Shown piece after piece: positions 2,707 to 40,703 of a stretch of DNA of 64,000 nucleotides. The position numbers were made by a program, and so were the translations under genes. The number at the start of each line of letters is the position of its first letter. The stretch's first letter is position 1. The notes under the pieces are model-generated. The model was given only the letters and a program-made list of their open reading frames with translations. It did no database searches and had not been told where the DNA came from. Source of the DNA: an uncultured Gammaproteobacteria bacterium (GTDB taxonomy: Bacteria; Patescibacteriota; Microgenomatia; Daviesbacterales; UBA10151); contig CAYQAW010000001.1 of assembly GCA_964415615.1 (NCBI GenBank), forward strand, positions 40,593 through 104,592, given 5' to 3'.

Positions 2707-3888
2707 TCAGTAATTCACTTTTGACCCTTCAGGAACAGTTTGAATCCAAATTTGTCCCCGATTAAATTCTATCTCTTGACCATTTTTGTCTAAGAATTTG
2801 CTCCTGGCAGTTCTGGAAAGCTTACTCCACTTACCCTCCACTACATTACCATCCTGGAAAATGAGCGCCTTACCATTCCCAATTGTTCCATACAACAAAT
2901 GAACATTACCAGGATAACCATCATTAGCATTTGCTTCTTTTTCAAATTGAACAATTATAACCTTAGGAGCAAGTTGAATATTATTATCCAAATCTATATG
3001 ATCTGAACCACCATTTTTTCTCTTGTAAGAATTTGTAGCAGAATCATATATCCAGACAACCTCGTAACCAGGCTGGGATTCCCAGAAATTAACTTTGATA
3101 TTCCCAGTAGCTCCGTCTTCTTTATCGTCTTTAAACTTCCAAGAAATAAAGTTCTTATCCCACTTTATCCCTGCTGAATCCGTAGCTGTCCAACCTCTTT
3201 TGGCTCCCACTTCCCAAAGTTTTGCAGTAGTGGAATACATTGTATGTTCTGTGGCAACCGAACGACCTAATCTTTGATAATCTCTCCAAAAAATAGGAAA
3301 CCCAATACTAAATTGGTTTAAATCATTTACTTCATACCTGATAATCTGACCTAAGGCATCTGCTGGACCAGGAGTATTTGCTCCTCCTACATGAGCATAA
3401 AGCGCATCATACTCTCCTAACCAATCCAAAAAATAAGTTCTCGCTGATCTAACTGGCCCAACTTGAACATCTGACAAGTTACAATAAAAAACTGCCATAA
3501 ATCTGGTAATTCCACCTTCTGCAACTGCCTCGTATACTACATCTGCTGAAGAAAGTCCTGATTGAGGTCTTGATTCTGTGTGATTTTCAATCATCACAGC
3601 CAAAGGTCTTCTCTTGTTCCAGAAATCTGCAGCTTTTTGAGTATGCTTACTACCATTTAATGGACATTCCTCAGTTTTTGGCTCATTTGGATCCTCAATC
3701 AAAGCATCAGTAGGAGTTGGCAATGAAGATACTAAACCTGCCTTGCCAGAAGAAGATTTACCAACTGCACTAAATAATGAATAAGATATGCTTGTTGAAA
3801 CACCATAAAAAAACACTCCTAGAATTATTAAAACTAAAATTCTCTGTAAGCTGTTTAGACCTTGAAATGTACTTACTACTTTATTCAT
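2707..3888 (-). CDS. DUF3048-family exported protein (YerB-like)
   Basis: 393 aa with an N-terminal TM/signal. The core PLAVMIENHTESRPQSGLSSADVVYEAVAEGGITRFMAVFY matches the DUF3048 signature, recalled from memory. Confidence 0.55.
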   Translation of the reverse strand: MNKVVSTFQGLNSLQRILVLIILGVFFYGVSTSISYSLFSAVGKSSSGKAGLVSSLPTPTDALIEDPNEPKTEECPLNGSKHTQKAADFWNKRRPLAVMIENHTESRPQSGLSSADVVYEAVAEGGITRFMAVFYCNLSDVQVGPVRSARTYFLDWLGEYDALYAHVGGANTPGPADALGQIIRYEVNDLNQFSIGFPIFWRDYQRLGRSVATEHTMYSTTAKLWEVGAKRGWTATDSAGIKWDKNFISWKFKDDKEDGATGNIKVNFWESQPGYEVVWIYDSATNSYKRKNGGSDHIDLDNNIQLAPKVIIVQFEKEANANDGYPGNVHLLYGTIGNGKALIFQDGNVVEGKWSKLSRTARSKFLDKNGQEIEFNRGQIWIQTVPEGSKVNY

Positions 3889-4363: not shown

Positions 4364-4805
4364 ATGTTACTCTTTCAATATACTTTATAAATATTAACGT
4401 TGTCAACTAAAGCTTTCATCTCTCTTGGTGCTTGACAGCCTTATCATATCATGCTAGGCTCAACTGAGGCTAATTTTAAATACCGTCATGGCTATCCAAC
4501 AGACTAAAAAACAATCAGATCTGGAAAAGCGCCTGCAGTTACTGCGTAAACAAGTCTATGGCAATGAGAAGTTCAGAGTTCAGAGTTCCCCGGCCTCGCT
4601 CCGCGAAGCGGGGCGGGCAGAGTTCAGAGTCGAAAACAAAGGAACTGTAAACTCTTCTAATGATCTTACTTATCTAGGTCAGGATTTATTAAAGATTTTA
4701 ATCTTTTCATCCGCAGCTATTGGTATTCAAATTGTCTTATTTATACTACTGAAAACTAATATCTTGAAACTAAATTTATTTTGAAGGGAGGTGAAATTTA
4801 AGTTA

Positions 4806-6252: not shown

Positions 6253-7210
6253 CTGCAGCTTGATGATACCATTTAACTATTACTTTTTCCACATTACCAG
6301 AAAGATATTGATCAGTTATATCAAACCATTCAATATCTTTCTCTTTTTTAAACCAGGTTTGTTGCCTCCGGGCATACCCATGAATTTTTCCTTGCATAAT
6401 CTTAATTAAATCTTCTTTACTAATAATCTTTCCCTCTAAAAAATCAGCCAATATTCCATATTCTAATCCCAACTGCCTCATTCTTCTAAGACTCAAACCT
6501 GCTTTATGTAATCTTTCTGCCTCATGAATCATTCCCTGATTAATCCTAGAAATAACCCGTTCATCAATTCTTCTGTAAAGAATATCCCTGGGAGCATTTA
6601 ACCCAATCTTTAAAAGATTAGCTTGCTTAAATCCTAAATCATAAATCATAAATCTACTCTTTTTCGGTCTTACCATTATCATTTCTATTGCCCTAACAAG
6701 TCTCCTAGGGTTGTGTCTATCAGACCCATTAAGGCTTTCCCATTTATTTTTATCTAGATTTTGTAACTTTTGTTGTAATTGCTCTTTAGAAAGCTCCTGC
6801 AATTCCTTTCTTAAATCTTTATCTACAGGAATAACTAGATTTGGTAAGCCTTCAAGCAATGCTTTTAGATACAAACCAGTTCCACCTACAATAATTGGCA
6901 GTTTCTCTCTACTTAAGATATTATCCACAACTTTGTTTGCATCTTTAACATAATTATAAACTGTATATTGCTGTCTAAAATCCACCACATCATACATCCA
7001 GACTTTTACCCCATCCATCTCCCAAAACCCTTTACCTTTTTCAACTACTACTTGCTTATCTGGAAGCTTACCTGTCCCAATATCTAATTTTTTGTAAACC
7101 TGCCTTGAATCACAACTGACCAACTCTCCATTAAACTTCTTAGCTAACTTTAGAGCTAAATCTGTTTTACCAGTTGAAGTAGGACCCACGATCATCAATA
7201 ATTTATTCAT
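6236..7210 (-). CDS. miaA: tRNA dimethylallyltransferase
   Basis: P-loop N-terminus LLMIVGPTSTGKTDLALKLAKKFNGELVSCDSRQVYKKLDIGTGK. This is the classic MiaA start. Confidence 0.85.
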   Translation of the reverse strand: MNKLLMIVGPTSTGKTDLALKLAKKFNGELVSCDSRQVYKKLDIGTGKLPDKQVVVEKGKGFWEMDGVKVWMYDVVDFRQQYTVYNYVKDANKVVDNILSREKLPIIVGGTGLYLKALLEGLPNLVIPVDKDLRKELQELSKEQLQQKLQNLDKNKWESLNGSDRHNPRRLVRAIEMIMVRPKKSRFMIYDLGFKQANLLKIGLNAPRDILYRRIDERVISRINQGMIHEAERLHKAGLSLRRMRQLGLEYGILADFLEGKIISKEDLIKIMQGKIHGYARRQQTWFKKEKDIEWFDITDQYLSGNVEKVIVKWYHQAADVTQD

Positions 7211-24706: not shown

Positions 24707-25095
24707 TTAGCTTCTCCTGCAAATACCTTTAATTTTTTGATCATCTGCCTGCCTAATCTATTGCGAGGAAGCATACCTTTGACAGCATGTTCAATAATAT
24801 ATTCCGGTTTACTGGTTAAAACTTTATCAAAAGTTTCTACCCGCAATCCTCCAGGATAACCTGAATGGCGGGTGTAAGTTTTTTCTTTCATCTTTTTACC
24901 TGTTACTTTAACTTGGCTGGCATTGGTTACCACCACAAAGTCTCCTGTATCCAGATATGGCACAAAGCTAGGTTTGTTTTTACCCATTAAAATTTTTGCC
25001 AACTCAGTAGCAAGTCTTCCTAAAACTTTCCCACTAGCATCTATTACATGCTTTTCTCTCTTTATATCTTTAGCTGATATTACATTAGTGCTCAT
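24703..25095 (-). CDS. rplM: 50S ribosomal protein L13
   Basis: [35 protein letters not shown]...[10 protein letters not shown]. Confidence 0.92.
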
Positions 25096-25119
25096 AAATT
25101 AGGGGCTAGTTACTAGAGT

Positions 25120-25575
25120 CTAGTGACTAGGTTTTTTCTCCCTTTTCTTATTAGCAGGTTTCTTTATTTCTGCATTTACTTCTTTTTTATCTTCTTTTCT
25201 TGACTCTAGACTCTTGACTCTAGACTCTTTTTTGGTTGGCTTTAACTGCTCTGCTCCAATTAAGCTCATTTTCACCATAGTAGCCTGATCTCCCTGTCTT
25301 GGCCCCATTCTTACTGTACTAGTAAACCCGGATGTTTTATTTCCTAATTTTGGCAGTATTTCTTTTATCTTTTCTTTTAATTCCTTGTCTGAAGAGAATG
25401 AGTCTTTCTTAACTGAATTGATGATTTTATCAACTAATCCTTTAATTGATTTTGCCTTAGATTCCGAAGTTTGAATAGTACCGTGTAAAAACAGCGACCG
25501 CACCAATGTTTTAAAGAGTGCTTGACGCTGACCTATATCTCTTCCCAGGTGTTTGCCATAAACTCTATGCCTCAC
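25120..25575 (-). CDS. rplQ: 50S ribosomal protein L17 with a Lys/Ser-rich C-terminal extension
   Basis: MRHRVYGKHLGRDIGQRQALFKTLVRSLFLHG. The tail contains a 14-nt tandem duplication (25198-25225). Confidence 0.9.
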   Translation of the reverse strand: MRHRVYGKHLGRDIGQRQALFKTLVRSLFLHGTIQTSESKAKSIKGLVDKIINSVKKDSFSSDKELKEKIKEILPKLGNKTSGFTSTVRMGPRQGDQATMVKMSLIGAEQLKPTKKESRVKSLESRKEDKKEVNAEIKKPANKKREKKPSH

Positions 25576-27893: not shown

Positions 27894-27947
27894 ATTAAAA
27901 CTTTCTTCCAAATTGTAAATTGTAAATTGTAAATTGTAAATTCATAA

Positions 27948-28064
27948 TTATCCTTGTCTTTGTTTGTGCCTCGGATCACGAGGGCAAATCACATACAACA
28001 TGCCTTCACGCTTAACGATTTTACAAAACTTACACCTTGCTTTAATTGATGCTTGTACTTTCAT
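27948..28064 (-). CDS. rpmJ: 50S ribosomal protein L36 (zinc-binding form)
   Basis: Manual [41 protein letters not shown]. It is too short for the ORF track. Confidence 0.9.
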
Positions 28065-28358: not shown

Positions 28359-29126
28359 TTACAACCCATAGCAGGTTAAAACCTCAGCTTTCTTTTCTCC
28401 TGCATTTACAGTCATCTCAAAAAGCCCTCCCCAGGATTTATCTAATGCTGAAAAAGTCCAATTATCTTCCCCTAAAACTACATCTGGCCCCCCTTTAGTA
28501 TAAATCACTTCAATTGCCAAAGTCATGCCACTCTTTACTACTGAACCAGTTCCTGGAGACCCAACCCCTGGTATTTCCGGATCTTCATGCAAAGATCTAC
28601 CCACTCCATGTCCTACTAAACTTCTGACTACACTATAACCTGCTCCTTCTACTTTAGTTTGAATTGCATGCGATATGTCCCCAATCCTATTACCGTCTAC
28701 CGCCTGAGCAATTCCCAACCATAACGCTTCCTCTCCCGTTTTCAAAAATTTTATTTTTTCTGACTGTTCACTGTCTACTGTACCCTGTCCACTTACTAAA
28801 ACACTCCAGGCGCAATCCGTATGCCAACCTTTATAGACAACTGCCAAATCTACACTCACTAAATCACCGTTGACAAACTTCCGATCGGTAGGTATTCCGT
28901 GTACTACTTGCTCATTTACTGTAATACATGTGGCATATTTATATCCAGGTACAGTTTTATAAGAGAGATCTCCACCATATTTATAAATCTCTTTTTTAAC
29001 TATCTCATCAACCTCCAACTCTGAGGTACCAACTTTTATAGACTCCATGGCGCGCTTGAGTGCTTTTGCTGCGATCTCGCCCGAATGTCTCATCAACTTT
29101 AGCTCATATTGATTTCTTGATTTCAT
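28359..29126 (-). CDS. map: methionine aminopeptidase type I
   Basis: VVHGIP...DLVSVDLAVVYKGWHTDCAWSV...HGVGRSLHEDP. Confidence 0.9.
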   Translation of the reverse strand: MKSRNQYELKLMRHSGEIAAKALKRAMESIKVGTSELEVDEIVKKEIYKYGGDLSYKTVPGYKYATCITVNEQVVHGIPTDRKFVNGDLVSVDLAVVYKGWHTDCAWSVLVSGQGTVDSEQSEKIKFLKTGEEALWLGIAQAVDGNRIGDISHAIQTKVEGAGYSVVRSLVGHGVGRSLHEDPEIPGVGSPGTGSVVKSGMTLAIEVIYTKGGPDVVLGEDNWTFSALDKSWGGLFEMTVNAGEKKAEVLTCYGL

Positions 29127-33260: not shown

Positions 33261-33351
33261 ATTAGTCGCTCCGCTCCAATGTATAATTGAAAATGTAAAA
33301 TGGAAAATTATTTTTCATAGTTTTTAATTGTAAATTGTACATTGTAAATTG

Positions 33352-33897
33352 TTAATTTCTAAATGGCATTCCTAAATACTCTAATAATTTCTTACCTTCT
33401 TGTTTGTTTCTTGCAGTAGTGGTGATAGTTACTGCCAAACCTCTGGTTTTATCCACGCTTTTATAATCAACTTCTGGAAAAATAGTTTGCTCTTTCAAAC
33501 CAATATTTAAATTCCCATTTTGATCAAAAGCATCAGCAGATATACCTCTGAAATCTCTCACCTTAGGTAAAACAATACTTACTAACTTATCCAAGAAAGC
33601 ATACATTTTATCACCTCTCAGTGTCACCATCATCCCAATTGGCTGACCCTGTGCAACTTTAAAAGCTGCAATTGATTTTTTGGCCTTTGTTACAACAGGG
33701 TTTTGACCTGCTAGAGCAGATAAATAAACCTTTACCTTATCCAGAATACCGCTATTATCTTTTGCTTCACCCAAACCAATACTAATTACTATTTTTGTAA
33801 CAGAGGGCACTGCCAGCTTGTTTTTAAATCCCAACTCCTGCTGCAATTTTGCTTGTATTTCTTTAAAATATTTTTCTTTAAGCCTTTGCATTTTCAA
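33352..33897 (-). CDS. rplE: 50S ribosomal protein L5
   Basis: MQRLKEKYFKEIQAKLQQELGFKN... Confidence 0.92.
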   Translation of the reverse strand: MKMQRLKEKYFKEIQAKLQQELGFKNKLAVPSVTKIVISIGLGEAKDNSGILDKVKVYLSALAGQNPVVTKAKKSIAAFKVAQGQPIGMMVTLRGDKMYAFLDKLVSIVLPKVRDFRGISADAFDQNGNLNIGLKEQTIFPEVDYKSVDKTRGLAVTITTTARNKQEGKKLLEYLGMPFRN

Positions 33898-34195: not shown

Positions 34196-34563
34196 TACCA
34201 TACCTCCTGCGCAAGTGAAATAATCTTCGTGTATCCTGCATCCCGAACTTCTCTGGCAATCGGCCCAAAGATACGGGTGGCCCGCAAATTACCATCGTTA
34301 TCTATAACTACCCCAGCATTATCATCAAATTTTATATATGAACCATCATCACGTCTAACTTCTTTTTTAGTTCTGACTATGACTACCTTTATAACTTCAT
34401 GGTTTTTAACTTGTCCATTAGGATCTGCTCCTTTAACGACTGCTACCACCTTCTGCCCTAAAGTAGCCTTTCTTTTACCTGAACCACCCAAAGGTTGAAT
34501 AACCTGTATAGATTTTGCTCCGCTGTTGTCTGCCACTGTTAATATTGTTCTATGTTGTACCAT
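34195..34563 (-). CDS. rplN: 50S ribosomal protein L14
   Basis: [23 protein letters not shown]. Confidence 0.93.
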
Positions 34564-34588
34564 AAAATTAGCTATCAGTCTTCAGCTT

Positions 34589-34969
34589 TCAGCTGTCAGA
34601 CTTCTCCTTCCTTTTAGCCTTTTTTTCTGCTTTTTCAGTCTGATGACTGACAGCTGATGACTCTTCAGTCTTTTCTTCTTCTGGCATTACTTCAGCTATC
34701 GCCTGCTCTGCTGCCATTTTCTGTTCTGCCTCCACAATTTCTGCTAAATTCTTCCCTATTACCTTTACAACTCTCCAGTGTTTATTTTTAGAAACTGGTT
34801 TTACTTTAATAATTTCTACTATATCCCCCAGCTTTACTCCAATAGGATCATCCACTAAAATATTTTTAGATCTTAAAAAAGTCTTTCTATATAAAGGATG
34901 CATGGCTGTCCTTTCTATAAGCACTGTTGCAGTTTTACTCATTTTTGCTGATATTACTCTGCCTTTCAT
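34589..34969 (-). CDS. rpsQ: 30S ribosomal protein S17 with a repeat-encoded Lys-rich C-terminal tail
   Basis: GRVISAKMSKTATVLIERTAMHPLYRKT. The tail ...SHQTEKAEKKAKRKEKSDS is encoded by repeat module A. Confidence 0.9.
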   Translation of the reverse strand: MKGRVISAKMSKTATVLIERTAMHPLYRKTFLRSKNILVDDPIGVKLGDIVEIIKVKPVSKNKHWRVVKVIGKNLAEIVEAEQKMAAEQAIAEVMPEEEKTEESSAVSHQTEKAEKKAKRKEKSDS

Positions 34970-34994
34970 GAAATTAGCTATCAGTCTTCAGCTT

Positions 34995-35291
34995 TCAGCT
35001 ATCAGACTTTTCCTTTCTTTTGTTTGACTTCTTTGGCTTTTCTTCTTTTTCATCTGTTTTTTCAGTCTGGAGACTTATTGACTCTAACTCTACCATCAAT
35101 TCTTTCTGTTTGATCAGTGTCAAGATTTGAGCCACTTCTTTTTTCCTTTTTGAAATCGTTTTTAAATCTTTTAATTTCTTCATATTTTTATCCAAAGTCA
35201 AACTAACAATTTCTTCAGTTAAAGTCTTTACTTTAAGTTTTAGTTCTTTTAAATCTAATCCTTTAATTTGTACAAACTCGTTTTTTTTCAT
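34995..35291 (-). CDS. rpmC: 50S ribosomal protein L29 with a repeat-encoded C-terminal tail
   Basis: MKKNEFVQIKGLDLKELKLKVKTLTEEIVSL... The tail ...EKPKKSNKRKEKSDS comes from repeat module B. The start is set at MKKNEF. Confidence 0.85.
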   Translation of the reverse strand: MKKNEFVQIKGLDLKELKLKVKTLTEEIVSLTLDKNMKKLKDLKTISKRKKEVAQILTLIKQKELMVELESISLQTEKTDEKEEKPKKSNKRKEKSDS

Positions 35292-35370
35292 GTTTTTGAT
35301 CCTTTCAAAAAGACAAGGTTCTGATGACTGAGCAATATAATATTTCCAAATTGCGAAGTCATCATGGTCC

Positions 35371-35784
35371 TTATGTTTTCTCCACAAATTTAGTATCCAT
35401 AGGCAGTTTATGAGAAGCCAACCTTAATGCTTCTTCTGCTATTTCCTTGCTGACAGCTCCCATTTCAAAAATTAAATTGCCTGGTTTTACCACTGCTACA
35501 TATCCTTCCACATCACCCTTACCAGAACCCATTCTGGATTCTGCTGGGTGCTTAGTAATTGGCTTATCAGGAAAAACCCTCATCCAAATACGTCCACCTC
35601 TTTGGGTAAAGTGAGCCATGGCTCTTCTTGCTGATTCCAACTGTCTTGCTGTAATAAATCCCGCTTCCATAACCTTGATCCCAAAAGTCCCAAAAGACAA
35701 ACTATTACCCCTGGTGGCCACACCACTTCTTTTACCTTTAAAAACTTTTCTATGTTTAGTTCTTTTCGGTTGTAACAGGGCCAT
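35371..35784 (-). CDS. rplP: 50S ribosomal protein L16
   Basis: [21 protein letters not shown]. Confidence 0.93.
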
Positions 35785-36425
35785 TAAATTTTTACCTCCC
35801 CTTTATTAATCCACACTTTTACCCCTACATATCCTGATTTTGTCAAAGCTGGGTATGAAGCAAAATCTATATCCGCTCTTAAAGTATGTAAAGGCATCGT
35901 TCCCGAGGCTTTCCATTCACGTCTCGCAATCTCTGCTCCACCAATTCTACCAGACAAAACAACTCTGACCCCTTTTGCGCCAGATCTCATCGCTCTTTCG
36001 ATTGCCTGATTCATCACTCTTTGCGCAGGAAGTCTTCTGGCAAGCTGTTCAGCCACAGATTGAGCAACCAAGTAAGCTACGGAATCTGCTGATTTTATTT
36101 CCATTGGCGCCACTTCTAAAGTGTTATCGTTTTTAATCTTTAATTCTACCATTAGAAACTTTTTAATTTCAGTTAAACCTGTTCCACCTCGTCCGATCAA
36201 AACTCCAGGGCGCGAAACAAAGATTATAACTTTTAATTTATTCACCGCTCTCTCAATCTCTACAGCAGCTACCCCTGCTTTTGAGAGCTTCTTCATCAGC
36301 AGATCACGGATTTTCAAATCTTCTAAGACATTTTCTCTATATTTAATTCCATGAGCAAACCAACGTGACTTCCAAGTTGACCCAATACCCATTCTAAAAC
36401 CTACCGGATGTATTTTTTGTCCCAT
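35784..36425 (-). CDS. rpsC: 30S ribosomal protein S3
   Basis: [15 protein letters not shown]... Confidence 0.93.
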
Positions 36426-36455
36426 AAAAAGTCATCAGTCTTCAGCTTTCAGCTA

Positions 36456-36875
36456 TCAGACTTTTCCTTTCTTTTGTTCAACTTTTTCTGTTTCTGTCTG
36501 CTTTGTTTTCAGTCTGATGACTGATGACTGATGACTGATGACTATTGGCTCATCACTTAGCACTATTTTTATATGTGCCATCCTCTTTTTATATGGTCTC
36601 ACTCTTCCTCTGGTACCTGCCCTGAAACGGCGCATCTTTGTGCTTTCATTTATCTCAATTGTCTTAAAACTTGCTTTTTGGGAATCTAAACCTTTCCCCT
36701 TAGCATTAGCAAGCACTGTTTTAATGGCTTTCTGAAAATCTAAAGCAGCAGACTTGGGTGTAACTTCCAAAACAGCAATGGCTTGATCAGGAGTCATTTT
36801 TCTCACCATATCAGCTACTAATCTCAATTTTCTTGGACTTGTATGTATATATTTTTGTATCGTTGTTATTTCCAT
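36456..36875 (-). CDS. rplV: 50S ribosomal protein L22 with a repeat-encoded C-terminal tail that contains a heptanucleotide tandem repeat
   Basis: METTIQKYIHTSPRKLRLVADMVRKM... The tail VISHQSSVIRLKTKQTETEKVEQKKGKV is encoded by repeat module C and includes (CTGATGA)4. Confidence 0.9.
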   Translation of the reverse strand: MEITTIQKYIHTSPRKLRLVADMVRKMTPDQAIAVLEVTPKSAALDFQKAIKTVLANAKGKGLDSQKASFKTIEINESTKMRRFRAGTRGRVRPYKKRMAHIKIVLSDEPIVISHQSSVIRLKTKQTETEKVEQKKGKV

Positions 36876-38323: not shown

Positions 38324-38994
38324 TTCAACCTTTCTACTGCTTCTTTGGTAACAAAAAGTAATTCATGTTTTACAATCTCATAGGCATTAATGAGGCTGAC
38401 CGGCAAAATATCTGCTTCCGGGATATTTCTGATAGCCCTGACTACATTATCCTGCTTTTCTCCAGTCACAATCAGTAAACTTTTAGCTTTTAGCTTTTTA
38501 AAAAGCTTTACCATTTCTTTGGTTTTACCTGAAGATTTTTCCAACCCTGATAATCCTATTATTTTCTTGTCAGCTGCTTTTTCAGAAAGAGCTGAAAGTA
38601 GGGCTGCTTTTTTCATCTTTCTTGGTAAATCTAATCTAATTTTGCGGGGTTTAGGACCAAAGGTTATTCCCCCACCCACAAAAATAGGTGCCCTTACTGC
38701 GCCATGCCTGGCTCTACCTGTTCCTTTTTGTCTATAAATTTTAGCAGTTGACCCTTCAACTTCTCCTCTGGTTTTAGTCGAACCTGGCAAATTCTTTTGA
38801 TTAGTAGTATAAACTTTGACTGCTTGTGCCAAAAGGCTTTTGCTTACTTTTTGACCAAAGATTTCCTTTGGCAAAGCTAAAGTTCCATCCTCTTTACCTG
38901 CTAAAGAATAAACAGGAATAGAAAGACTAGATCCTTCGACTCGCTTTGCTCGCTCAGGATGACTCGCTTTGCTCGTCACTTTCTTAACTGGCAT
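38320..38994 (-). CDS. rplD: 50S ribosomal protein L4
   Basis: 224 aa. ...IYRQKGTGRARHGAVRAPIFVGGG... Confidence 0.92.
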   Translation of the reverse strand: MPVKKVTSKASHPERAKRVEGSSLSIPVYSLAGKEDGTLALPKEIFGQKVSKSLLAQAVKVYTTNQKNLPGSTKTRGEVEGSTAKIYRQKGTGRARHGAVRAPIFVGGGITFGPKPRKIRLDLPRKMKKAALLSALSEKAADKKIIGLSGLEKSSGKTKEMVKLFKKLKAKSLLIVTGEKQDNVVRAIRNIPEADILPVSLINAYEIVKHELLFVTKEAVERLK

Positions 38995-40018: not shown

Positions 40019-40252
40019 ATGGAAAAGAGTATTAAACAAACTGTTAAATCCTCAATGCTTAGGGCTGGCAAAAGAACATTTTTCTTTGATGTCAAAGTAG
40101 CTTCTAATAACAAGAAGTATCTAAAAATTACTGAGTCAGCTTTTGAGGGAGAAGGTAAGGAAAGAAGATATAATTCTTTTTTGCTTTGGCCTGAAAATTT
40201 AACTGATTTTCAACAAAGATTAACAGAAATCAATAATTTCCTAGCACAGTAA
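40019..40252 (+). CDS. PUR-alpha-like (DUF3276) small nucleic-acid-binding protein
   Basis: 77 aa. GKRTFFFDVKVASNNKKYLKITES...FLLWPENLTDFQQRL matches the bacterial PurA-like repeat (GKRTYFFDVK / YLKITES). Confidence 0.6.
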   Translation: MEKSIKQTVKSSMLRAGKRTFFFDVKVASNNKKYLKITESAFEGEGKERRYNSFLLWPENLTDFQQRLTEINNFLAQ

Positions 40253-40391: not shown

Positions 40392-40703
40392 TTATTTAGA
40401 AGAAGGATCAGGCATAAAAGGATGTCGAAGGTTGTATAAAGCCCTAGCTTCAGTTTGTCTCATCCATCCAATTGAGTAAGGTCTCCCTCTTAATTCCATT
40501 CCTACTATTTCTCCAACTTCAGCAAATGACTTAGATCTACCATCATCTAAACCAAATCTTAATTGAAGCACTCTTCTTTCCCTATGAGTAAGCCCATTTA
40601 AAACTTCCTCTACTTCTCGCATTGACTCTTCTATGCTTTTTATAGTAAGGCTCGAAAACGATGCTGCTAATTCTGATTCATTTATATTTGGATTTTCTAC
40701 CAT
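40392..40703 (-). CDS. stand-alone sigma-70 region-4 (sigma 4.1/4.2 HTH) domain protein
   Basis: 103 aa. LNGLTHRERRVLQLRFGLDDGRSKSFAEVGEIVGMELRGRPYSIGWMRQTEARALYNLRHP aligns with RpoD region 4 (LTxRExxVLxxRFGLxDG...EVG...RQIEAKALRKLRHP). It carries a 7-aa insertion in the recognition helix. The gene starts 17 nt downstream of the rpsJ stop. Confidence 0.6.
   Translation of the reverse strand: MVENPNINESELAASFSSLTIKSIEESMREVEEVLNGLTHRERRVLQLRFGLDDGRSKSFAEVGEIVGMELRGRPYSIGWMRQTEARALYNLRHPFMPDPSSK

Follow-up and report, generated by a model that had tools for sequence, protein, structure and literature searches.

Inverted heptanucleotide-repeat cassettes at ribosomal-protein gene junctions of a Daviesbacteria genome: candidate elements of translational coupling

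Introduction

Why would the same piece of DNA end three different ribosomal-protein genes and lead, each time, up to the start codon of the next one? The question is raised by a 64,000-nt stretch (hereafter the window; positions 40,593 to 104,592 of contig CAYQAW010000001.1, assembly GCA_964415615.1, GTDB lineage Daviesbacterales), the minus strand of which carries an S10-spc-alpha ribosomal-protein gene array, as judged from its list of open reading frames (ORFs) and from Pfam. The L22, S17 and S3 proteins encoded there are identical to the Candidatus Daviesbacteria GenBank entries MBI2085808.1, MBI2085804.1 and MBI2085807.1, respectively. An initial annotation had noted a repeat module at the rplV/rpsC, rpmC/rpsQ and rpsQ/rplN junctions, giving Lys-rich C-terminal tails to L22, L29 and S17, and had seen in it a small repetitive element, or the product of gene conversion among junctions, co-opted to extend these proteins. 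Our analysis leads us to think, with moderate confidence, that the three copies are paralogous junction cassettes made of inverted heptanucleotide repeats, maintained at the nucleotide level and spread by conversion, which would act through a helix spanning the stop codon, either by coupling the translation of the two genes or by RNase III-type processing.

Results

Three copies of one module in the gene array

Most junctions of the array consist of a stop/start overlap or of a gap of 1-5 nt, and the L30 gene is not present between those of S5 and L15. The junctions with longer gaps are:

rplV/rpsC, 30 nt
rpmC/rpsQ, 25 nt
rpsQ/rplN, 25 nt
rplP/rpmC, 79 nt
rplE/rpsN, 91 nt
rplQ/rplM, 24 nt

Copy counts for the source genome refer to the 64-kb window. 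The 29-mer AGTCTGATAGCTGAAAGCTGAAGACTGAT, allowing up to 3 mismatches, has exactly 3 matches in it, and so has its 20-nt core, for 0 expected in both cases (100 shuffles). The sites, all on the minus (coding) strand, are 34574-34602, 34980-35008 and 36434-36462. A repeat search of the window returned a 55-nt ungapped family at 34561-34615, 34967-35021 and 36421-36475 (identity 82-93%) and, further upstream, a second common piece of 31 nt at 34632-62, 35059-89 and 36506-36 (identity 68-90%). The three module copies are also the only period-7 CTGA arrays of at least 3 units in the window. The existence of copies at rpsQ/rplN, rpmC/rpsQ and rplV/rpsC is thereby confirmed, each being ~100-120 nt long, with none expected by chance. 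The ORFs and Lys-rich tails of L22, L29 and S17 agree with what had been described, and so do the 25-30-nt spacers, which measure 30, 25 and 25 nt, none with a Shine-Dalgarno (SD) sequence. Pfam domains end at residue 107 of 139 in L22, 63 of 98 in L29 and 69 of 126 in S17, all well before the module.

Anatomy of the cassettes

On the coding strand each cassette reads, in order, 5' arm, purine-rich loop, 3' array, 4-6 A/T-rich nt and ATG. The 5' arm lies within the 3' end of the upstream ORF and is made of AG(T/C)(C/T)(A/G)TC heptamers (TCAG-type; AGTCATC and AGCTGTC, for instance). It has 4 perfect AGTCATC units in the L22 copy (Tandem Repeats Finder: period 7, 4.3 copies, 100% matches) and 3 units in the S17 copy, and is degenerate in the L29 copy. 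After the arm comes CAGACTGAAAA, then a purine-rich, stop-poor loop of 33-54 nt ending in AAAGGA(A/G)AAG (SD-like AAAGGAG). The 3' array follows the consensus AGTCTGA (T/C)AGCTGA AAGCTGA AGACTGA T(A/G)(G/A)CT (CTGA-type), with (C)TAATTTy as its terminus directly before the downstream ATG. The arrays stop 4-6 nt short of the ATG of rpsC, rpsQ and rplN, and the closest SD-like run lies 40-48 nt upstream. The parts of the three copies, named C, B and A, are:

36426..36543, minus: copy C, rplV (L22) 3' end to rpsC (S3), encoding L22 residues ~111-139
36510..36543, minus: 5' arm of copy C, (AGTCATC)x4 then AGACTG, translated ISHQSSVIRL, predicted to pair with 36430-36462
36461-36470, minus: SD-like AAAGGAAAAG before the 3' array of copy C
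36430..36462, minus: 3' array of copy C, AGTCTGA TAGCTGA AAGCTGA AGACTGA TGACT, with the L22 stop TGA at 36456-36458
36423-36425, minus: rpsC ATG, preceded by TTTT
34970..35090, minus: copy B, rpmC (L29) 3' end to rpsQ (S17)
35063-35090, minus: degenerate 5' arm of copy B
35009-35062, minus: purine-rich loop of copy B
34976-35008, minus: 3' array of copy B, with the stop TGA at 34995-34997
34967-34969, minus: rpsQ ATG, preceded by AATTTC
34564..34662, minus: copy A, rpsQ (S17) 3' end to rplN (L14)
34636-34662, minus: 5' arm of copy A, AGTCATC AGCTGTC AGTCATC AGACTG
34603-34635, minus: loop of copy A
34570-34602, minus: 3' array of copy A, with the stop TGA at 34589-34591
34561-34563, minus: rplN ATG, preceded by AATTTT

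Predicted folding and proposed mode of action

The L22 copy is predicted to fold with a minimum free energy of -44.8 kcal/mol (z = -6.7) and the S17 copy with -32.7 kcal/mol (z = -3.8), the 5' arm pairing in both with the entire 3' array. The pairing of UCAGACU with AGUCUGA noted by the initial annotation is recovered as the inner segment of this longer predicted helix in the two copies. For the L29 copy (-19.3 kcal/mol, z = -0.6), only a local hairpin is predicted, AGUCU-GAU-AGCU-GAA-AGCU-GA-AGACU, and no long-range helix. The predicted helices run over the stop codon to within 5-10 nt of the next AUG, which is itself predicted to be unpaired. When junctions were folded in bulk, those with a spacer of at least 18 nt mostly had tail-to-spacer helices (z of -4 or lower), and those with abutting stop and start had none. 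Besides the L22 and S17 copies, cassettes of three relatives presented below (L111, L041 and L042) are predicted to form a helix of this geometry, in contrast to the L29 copy and the CTAG-type cassettes.

From this geometry we infer that the likeliest role of the cassettes is structure-dependent translational coupling or mRNA processing. The initial annotation had likewise suggested a shared coupling or processing signal, which we regard as plausible. The two arms would pair into an RNA helix over the stop codon that extends to within 5-10 nt of the downstream AUG and hides the initiation region of a gene with no SD close by. A ribosome translating the upstream cistron would melt this helix and terminate within the 3' arm, 25-30 nt from the AUG, so that the synthesis of S3, S17 and L14, by termination-reinitiation, would be coupled to that of L22, L29 and S17. 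Alternatively, or in addition, the 20-30 bp helix may be an RNase III-type processing or stabilising site. That the copies themselves are homogenised or spread in the genome, through gene conversion or template switching, is largely demonstrated by the comparisons given below.

A hairpin with inverted arms, followed in the L22 copy by UUUUU, and present in many copies per genome in some phages, could also suggest a mobile element of the miniature inverted-repeat transposable element (MITE) or repetitive extragenic palindrome (REP) kind, or an intrinsic terminator or attenuator inside the operon. We regard this as very unlikely. What the copies share is mainly 55 nt on the 3' side and a short stretch on the 5' side, the loops and 5' arms being different; CTGA arrays number only three in 64 kb, all of them within ribosomal-protein operons; and no target-site duplications are found at the sharp replacement boundaries described below. 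As for termination, the terminator scan flags no module on the coding strand, and terminator-like sites are not above the shuffle expectation. The loops have 33-54 nt, versus 3-8 nt for intrinsic terminators, and U5 follows the L22 copy only. A stop of transcription between L22 and S3 would moreover separate essential genes from their promoter.

A fourth cassette of the same architecture, built of CTAG-type heptamers, joins rplQ to rplM (fold z = -3.3), and a hairpin using the cassette heptamer in reversed order lies in the rplP/rpmC spacer (-23.2 kcal/mol, z = -3.65):

25093..25229, minus: fourth cassette, rplQ (L17) 3' end to rplM (L13)
25198-25229, minus: its 5' arm, (AGAGTCT/AGAGTCA)n, followed by a Lys-rich loop ending in AAAGGGAG
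25106-25130, minus: its 3' array, CCTAGTCACTAGACTCTAGTAACTAG, with the stop TAG at 25120-25122
25093-25095, minus: downstream ATG, preceded by CCCCTAATTT
35322..35364, minus: rplP/rpmC spacer hairpin, TGATGACT..GCAAT-loop-ATTGC..AGTCATCA, with CAGTCATCAG at 35321-35330

TAG codons close all three frames of the fourth cassette, from which L17 gains a 46-residue tail (...ESRVKSLESRKEDKK...KKPSH, then stop).

Reading frames and C-terminal tails

Across the whole module, the L22 frame is offset by one from that of S17 and L29. Read in its unused frame, the L22 copy gives KKLNKRKEKSDS and a stop, which is the L29 tail, and an unused frame of the S17 copy gives SHQLSVIRLKKQKK, similar to the L22 tail. 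The TGAs of the 3' array lie 7 nt apart, and frames 0, 1 and 2 are all closed within 21 nt; the first TGA ends L22, the second S17 and L29. Because 7 = 1 mod 3, a TGA falls in all three frames, and the upstream ORF terminates whichever frame it arrives in. The earlier stop of the L22 copy had been attributed to a 1-nt indel, but the shared 3' core aligns gap-free. L22 enters the module in the other frame because each extra heptamer upstream shifts the frame by +1.

All open frames of the purine-rich loop encode basic residues, so that the Lys-richness of the tails, which are of low complexity, follows from the composition of the loop in any open frame. The sequences largely establish that the module is an element kept at the nucleotide level and not a conserved peptide. 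The Lys-rich tails are best read as translated by-products of the 5' arm and loop, in whichever frame these are used.

Turnover of the junctions among relatives

Thirteen close relatives (S3 protein identity 66-84%) were available, as S3-anchored metagenome loci and one genome match (L021). Lys/Glu-rich tails on L22, L29 and S17 are found in nearly all of them. These are not the same tails without repeats, as ancient extensions would be: the sequences differ, and most have a period-7 unit of their own (AAAWAYC, AAAAGTC, GAAAAGT, GTNACAA, AAATCTC and others). Relatives that lack a 3' array have tails ending in AAGGAG, with the stop adjoining or overlapping the following ATG; since AAGGAG stands directly before the ATG there, the arrays sit between the old SD and the start. 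CTGA-type cassettes were found at S17/L14 of L041 and L042 and at L22/S3 of L021, and CTAG-type cassettes at S17/L14 of L021 and L040. In the sister genome L021, the AGAGTCN unit, as in the L17/L13 cassette of the window, builds the L22, S17 and S5 tails, and the L22/S3 3' core is nearly identical to that of the window although the flanking genes have diverged.

The closest comparison is with L111 (GCA_001779745.1) and L115, members of the 90% protein cluster of L22, whose S3 genes are 95% and 94% nucleotide-identical to that of the window. Between these genomes the L22 core is ~97% identical in nucleotides, its protein identity being 90-94% across the cluster, for tails of 32, 14 and 6 aa. 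The junctions compare as follows, the comparison with L115 covering L22/S3:

L22/S3, window: 4 x AGTCATC, long loop, CTGA array
L22/S3, L111: single TCAG unit, AAAGGAGAT, short CTGA array
L22/S3, L115: tail KGAKST and stop, then a 67-nt spacer hairpin of TAGCNNN/ACGCTRA heptamers
L29/S17, window: CTGA cassette, 5' arm altered to CCAGACTGAAAAAACAG
L29/S17, L111: orthologous cassette, 92% identical, with a better 5' arm, AAGTCGTCAGTCTTCAG
S17/L14, window: CTGA cassette
S17/L14, L111, 5' side: unrelated cassette, GGGAGAA GGGGAAA GCGGTAA GGGTGAA ..., Lys-rich
S17/L14, L111, 3' side: CTTTACC CTTTACG CTTCTCG CTTTACC CTAATTT-ATG

The L22/S3 junction thus has three distinct states among genomes with 94-95% identical S3 nucleotides. 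At S17/L14, window and L111 match at ~97% as far as ...CCAGAAGAAGA and once more from TAATTT-ATG onwards; the boundaries are sharp, and nothing in between can be aligned. The unrelated heptamer arms of L111 are nevertheless predicted to pair with each other (-39.3 kcal/mol, z = -3.8), and the S17/L14 junction of L042 is predicted to form a CTGA-type helix (z = -4.25). As arm sequence is exchanged and pairing kept, it is the stop-spanning helix that seems to be conserved, not its sequence. That cassettes are replaced very quickly across Daviesbacteria is, from these alignments, largely demonstrated.

The copies of the window are also more alike than orthologues are. Over 45 nt of the 3' core, the window L29 copy is identical to the window L22 copy, whereas it differs at three sites from its orthologue in L111 (GAT/GAC, GAA/GAT, and C/T before the ATG). 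The window S17 copy has GAC and TTTTATG in common with the L111 L29 copy. The motif CAGACTGAAAAA is present in all three window copies, including the altered 5' arm at L29/S17, and not in L111, and the CTGA cassettes number 2 in L111 and 3 in the window. Paralogues closer than orthologues, a derived 5' motif restricted to the window and a differing cassette number together argue for intragenomic conversion or copying since ~5% divergence. The first half of the initial proposal, a small repetitive element or gene conversion among junctions, is supported by this identity of the L29 and L22 copies and by nucleotide-level conservation in two frames, and further by the wholly different S17/L14 cassette of L111 (S3 95% identical).

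The second half, co-option as a selected extension, is not supported. Basic extensions are common in ribosomal proteins, and the Lys-rich tails of L22, L29 and S17 could bind rRNA or act at the ribosome surface; their presence, Lys/Glu-rich, in almost all close relatives and the annotation of the long ORFs in GenBank would fit. But tail sequence and length (32, 14, 6 aa) vary, up to wholly different tails between genomes, behind L22 cores that are nearly identical, the same nucleotides serve in two frames, and Lys-richness is found in every open loop frame. A tail of identical style is even carried by an acidobacterial protein, the luciferase-like monooxygenase of a Blastocatellia metagenome-assembled genome (MAG). 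We therefore judge selection on the tails to be unlikely, and it has the least support of the readings considered.

The exchange of heptamers bears as well on a trans-acting reader. The arrays occupy the position of the SD and abut start codons, here and in other phyla, and a CTGA array could be recognised by S1, a cold-shock protein, CsrA or an autoregulatory ribosomal protein, recruiting or blocking ribosomes in place of the SD. The same was proposed for the TAACTGA arrays (PMC4679880), and an unidentified heptamer-binding partner was proposed in Nostoc (bioRxiv 10.1101/2022.06.06.494920). However, unrelated heptamers (CTGA, CTAG, CTTTACC, ACGCTGA) are used at one junction in close relatives, which makes a sequence-specific reader improbable, complementarity being what is kept, and no candidate protein emerged from the analysis. 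We hold this explanation to be quite unlikely. A split ribosome-binding site, with a local 3' hairpin placing AAGGAG beside the AUG in the manner of T4 gene 38, was considered and rejected: an effective spacing of ~14 nt would remain, and a local hairpin cannot form in the CTTTACC-type array of L111.

Variation is seen as well between rpsJ (S10) and rplC (L3), where the window has a 103-residue protein with a sigma-70 region-4 domain only (40392-40703, minus), a gap of 613 nt and, on the other strand, a DUF3276 ORF (40019-40252, plus), and where L111 has a GIY-YIG gene. A palindromic, GC-rich insert (..gtcatcctgagcgagcaaagcgagtcgaaggatc..; ~38925-38975, minus) encodes SHPERAKRVEGSS near the L4 N-terminus, and a second GC-rich hairpin (cccgccccgcttcgcggagcgaggccgggg) is found at ~4570-4640 with (CTCTGAA)n heptamers on either side. 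In relatives L031, L041 and L045, similar GC hairpins lie in the tails of L22 and S17.

Heptamer repeats in the lineage

Of the 16 tandem arrays of the window, 12 have a period of 7 (1.9 per 10 kb). Close relatives have 23 such arrays out of 39 (3.3 per 10 kb), distant ones 7 out of 62 (0.23 per 10 kb). Several lie in frame within coding genes:

6628-6654: MiaA
18161-18179: RecX
28763-28793: Map
38480-38498: L4
56848-56880: YceG, (AAATTCA)x4.7 = NSKFKIQNSKF

This suggests that heptamer arrays also make internal protein insertions in this lineage. Other heptamer arrays, (AATTTAC)n, lie on the minus strand directly upstream of rpsM (27910-27949, rpmJ/rpsM spacer) and of rpsN (33278-33357, rplE/rpsN spacer). 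Their 7-nt period creates sigma-70-like TTTACA-N17-TACAAT pairs (10 of 12 matches), and the arrays could act as internal promoters made of heptamer repeats, located where E. coli has its alpha-operon promoter.

Occurrence in other phyla and in phages

Among representative genomes, the exact 20-mer was found at 30 loci in Omnitrophota, Acidobacteriota, Bacteroidota (including Niabella isolates), Chloroflexota, Gammaproteobacteria, Planctomycetota and Patescibacteria. At 17 of these loci a TCAG array of period 7 is found at most 200 nt upstream, giving hairpins of the form (AGCTATC-like)n, loop, (GATAGCT-like)n. A long ORF begins within 30 nt of the array end in about half. ORFs in other phyla run through the open arm and end in ...DS or ...ES and a stop within the CTGA array. 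The Blastocatellia monooxygenase is such a case (L027, JAKEHD010000387.1, minus, ~3028-3129): a 15-unit CTGA array follows (AGCCGTC)n, and the protein, whose Pfam domain ends at residue 326 of 386, has the tail AVSRQPSALSRQPSALSRQPSERKADS and stop (..SRQPSERKADS). In a 770-kb scaffold of a sister Daviesbacteria, the only other exact 20-mer match (L005, JACPDA010000004.1) is an intergenic heptamer hairpin whose array abuts an ATG (..GACTGATgactATG), ~500 nt from the tmRNA gene (2810-3224) and close to two tRNA genes.

A gapped pattern describing the inverted arrangement matched at least 120 viral stretches. One 34-kb phage contig has at least 14 inverted heptamer hairpins, many ending in ...gctgaaagctATG. 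Many intergenic heptamer hairpins were seen in phage contigs L143, L162, L163 (IMGVR_UViG_3300045936_000120) and L158 (IMGVR_UViG_3300045947_000060), with units AGCNNTC/GCTGANN or TTTTCAG/CTGAAAA and many ending a few nt before an ATG. From their arrangement, heptamer hairpins look like a standard intercistronic element of these phages. In the 27-42 kb of the window scanned against Rfam, no meaningful overlap with the modules was found at E <= 1 for any family, ribosomal-protein leaders and autoregulatory sites included, the only matches near them being sub-threshold and on the opposite strand (NEAT1_2, P26), and the nine heptamer-hairpin loci scanned from other phyla gave nothing relevant.

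Discussion

The main competitor to a functional cassette is a neutral or selfish by-product, in which a lineage-specific mutational process, heptamer slippage with fold-back or template switching, seeds functionless inverted arrays at tolerated sites, gene ends and junctions being the only permissive ones in a compact genome. We consider this possible but the less probable explanation. Period-7 arrays are in tenfold excess in this clade, in-frame heptamer arrays also lie within MiaA, RecX, Map, YceG and L4, and junction states differ among genomes 94-95% identical in S3. In a passage of PMC4679880 citing Mrazek 2007, heptamers are given as the commonest long simple repeats in prokaryotes. Such a by-product would not be expected, on the other hand, to keep arm complementarity when arm sequence is fully exchanged, nor to end its arrays at a fixed short distance before the ATG with a common CTAATTTyATG terminus. 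The near-identical 3' core at L22/S3 in L021 between diverged flanking genes, and the recurrence of the same placement in phages and other phyla, also go against it.

Several observations nevertheless count against the coupling cassette that we favour. Coupling is proposed here from geometry, and a very fast turnover is equally expected of a neutral mutational by-product. The long helix is not universal, since the L29 copy and the CTAG-type cassettes (L17/L13 of the window, S17/L14 of L021) give local hairpins only. Nor is the cassette fully frame-agnostic, the 5' arm and loop of the S17 copy being open in only 2 of 3 frames. The 770-kb sister scaffold has only 2 exact 20-mer matches, for a source searched over 64 kb. 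For the 148 phage hairpins analysed, the share with a start codon no more than 30 nt away is 79%, versus 59% of random positions, and a measure of placement at junctions gives 45% versus 44% at random; these statistics are too coarse to discriminate.

The coupling proposed here has well-established counterparts. In the MS2 coat-replicase 'Min Jou' interaction and in E. coli rpmI-rplT (L35-L20), the downstream initiation region is masked by pairing with the upstream ORF and opened by translation. The cassettes would work likewise, the mechanism being established for these two and proposed for ours. The MS2 and rpmI-rplT structures are single, sequence-specific and conserved, whereas the window cassettes are interchangeable heptamers, multi-copy and rapidly replaced. 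For the processing variant, the phage T7 intercistronic RNase III sites are stem-loops that process or stabilise mRNA, and Arbiol et al. reportedly described in 2010 the PeSL 'mobile regulatory cassettes' of T4-type phages. Like heptamer hairpins, which are numerous in some phages too, both recur as intergenic stem-loops separating genes that are transcribed together; their roles are the processing or stabilisation of mRNA, and they may serve as recombination substrates by which junctions are shuffled. In contrast to our elements, which are known from sequence alone, neither has a 7-nt periodicity, and PeSLs carry promoters.

Heptamer repeats themselves have been described before. The STRR (short tandemly repeated repetitive) heptamers of cyanobacteria are said to go back to Mazel et al. 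1990. Like those of the window, cyanobacterial heptamer repeats are tandem, abundant in their lineage, often beside start codons or promoters, and suspected of a regulatory role. Their units differ (TTTTGAA or CCCCAGT, for example), they are described as direct arrays and not as stop-spanning hairpins, and no link to protein tails or to copy homogenisation is reported for them. In Nostoc, heptamer repeats near start codons were found to have a regulatory effect (bioRxiv 10.1101/2022.06.06.494920).

The closest described case is that of the TAACTGA direct repeats of marine Beggiatoaceae, some Cyanobacteria and Bacteroidetes (MacGregor 2015, PMC4679880). These lie just upstream of SD-less start codons, overlap upstream stops, have stops in all frames and occur inside ribosomal-protein operons; copies in reverse orientation are translated LSVISYQ, and S1, cold-shock protein or CsrA were proposed as possible readers (PMC4679880). 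The window cassettes share with them the tandem 7-nt units, the CTGA core and the ribosomal-protein operon setting, the position a few nt before an SD-less start, the overlap with the upstream stop and the stops in three frames, as well as the translation of reverse-orientation copies, here SHQSSVI. The exact TAACTGA unit is however absent from the window arrays, whose units are NRRCTGA variants (TAGCTGA, AAGCTGA, AGACTGA, CAGCTGA), and these are paired with an inverted TCAG-type array as a hairpin, whereas one indirect repeat only is reported in BOGUAY (PMC4679880). Unlike the TAACTGA case, our cassettes are in a host of the Candidate Phyla Radiation (CPR), have their 5' arm and loop within essential ribosomal-protein ORFs, exist as near-identical paralogous copies, and show a documented, very fast replacement among close relatives. 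In the literature on heptamer hairpins, CPR ribosomal-protein extensions and small dispersed repeats, we found no account of the inverted stop-spanning form, of such cassettes in CPR bacteria, or of an effect on ribosomal-protein C-termini.

It is tempting, though doubtful at this stage, to go further and to see in inverted heptamer hairpins (TCAG-N3 arm, loop, CTGA-N3 arm, and analogues) widespread and unrecognised self-renewing junction cassettes of bacteria and phages, which would be written at gene ends by heptamer-biased copying, provide, through their 7 = 1 mod 3 periodicity, stops in three frames next to a partner arm compatible with an ORF, replace SD or overlap coupling and rewrite the C-termini of proteins, essential ribosomal ones among them, as they turn over.

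Ribosomal-protein operons are among the most conserved gene arrays, and yet the junctions and the C-termini of L22, L29, S17 and L17 are here what evolves fastest in the locus. The C-terminal 'extensions' of CPR ribosomal proteins found in annotations should accordingly not be taken as conserved protein features, and cassette junctions should make good strain-level markers. The cassettes belong to a broad, barely described class, that of CTGA heptamer hairpins in many phyla and phages. The 7 = 1 mod 3 rule offers a simple reason for the dominance of heptamers in such repeats, and it connects the TAACTGA repeats (2015), the cyanobacterial heptamer repeats and the abundant phage and MAG hairpins that have no Rfam family. 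If the cassettes do mediate coupling or processing, they would offer another way of setting ribosomal-protein stoichiometry, which normally depends on stop/start overlaps and Shine-Dalgarno sequences.

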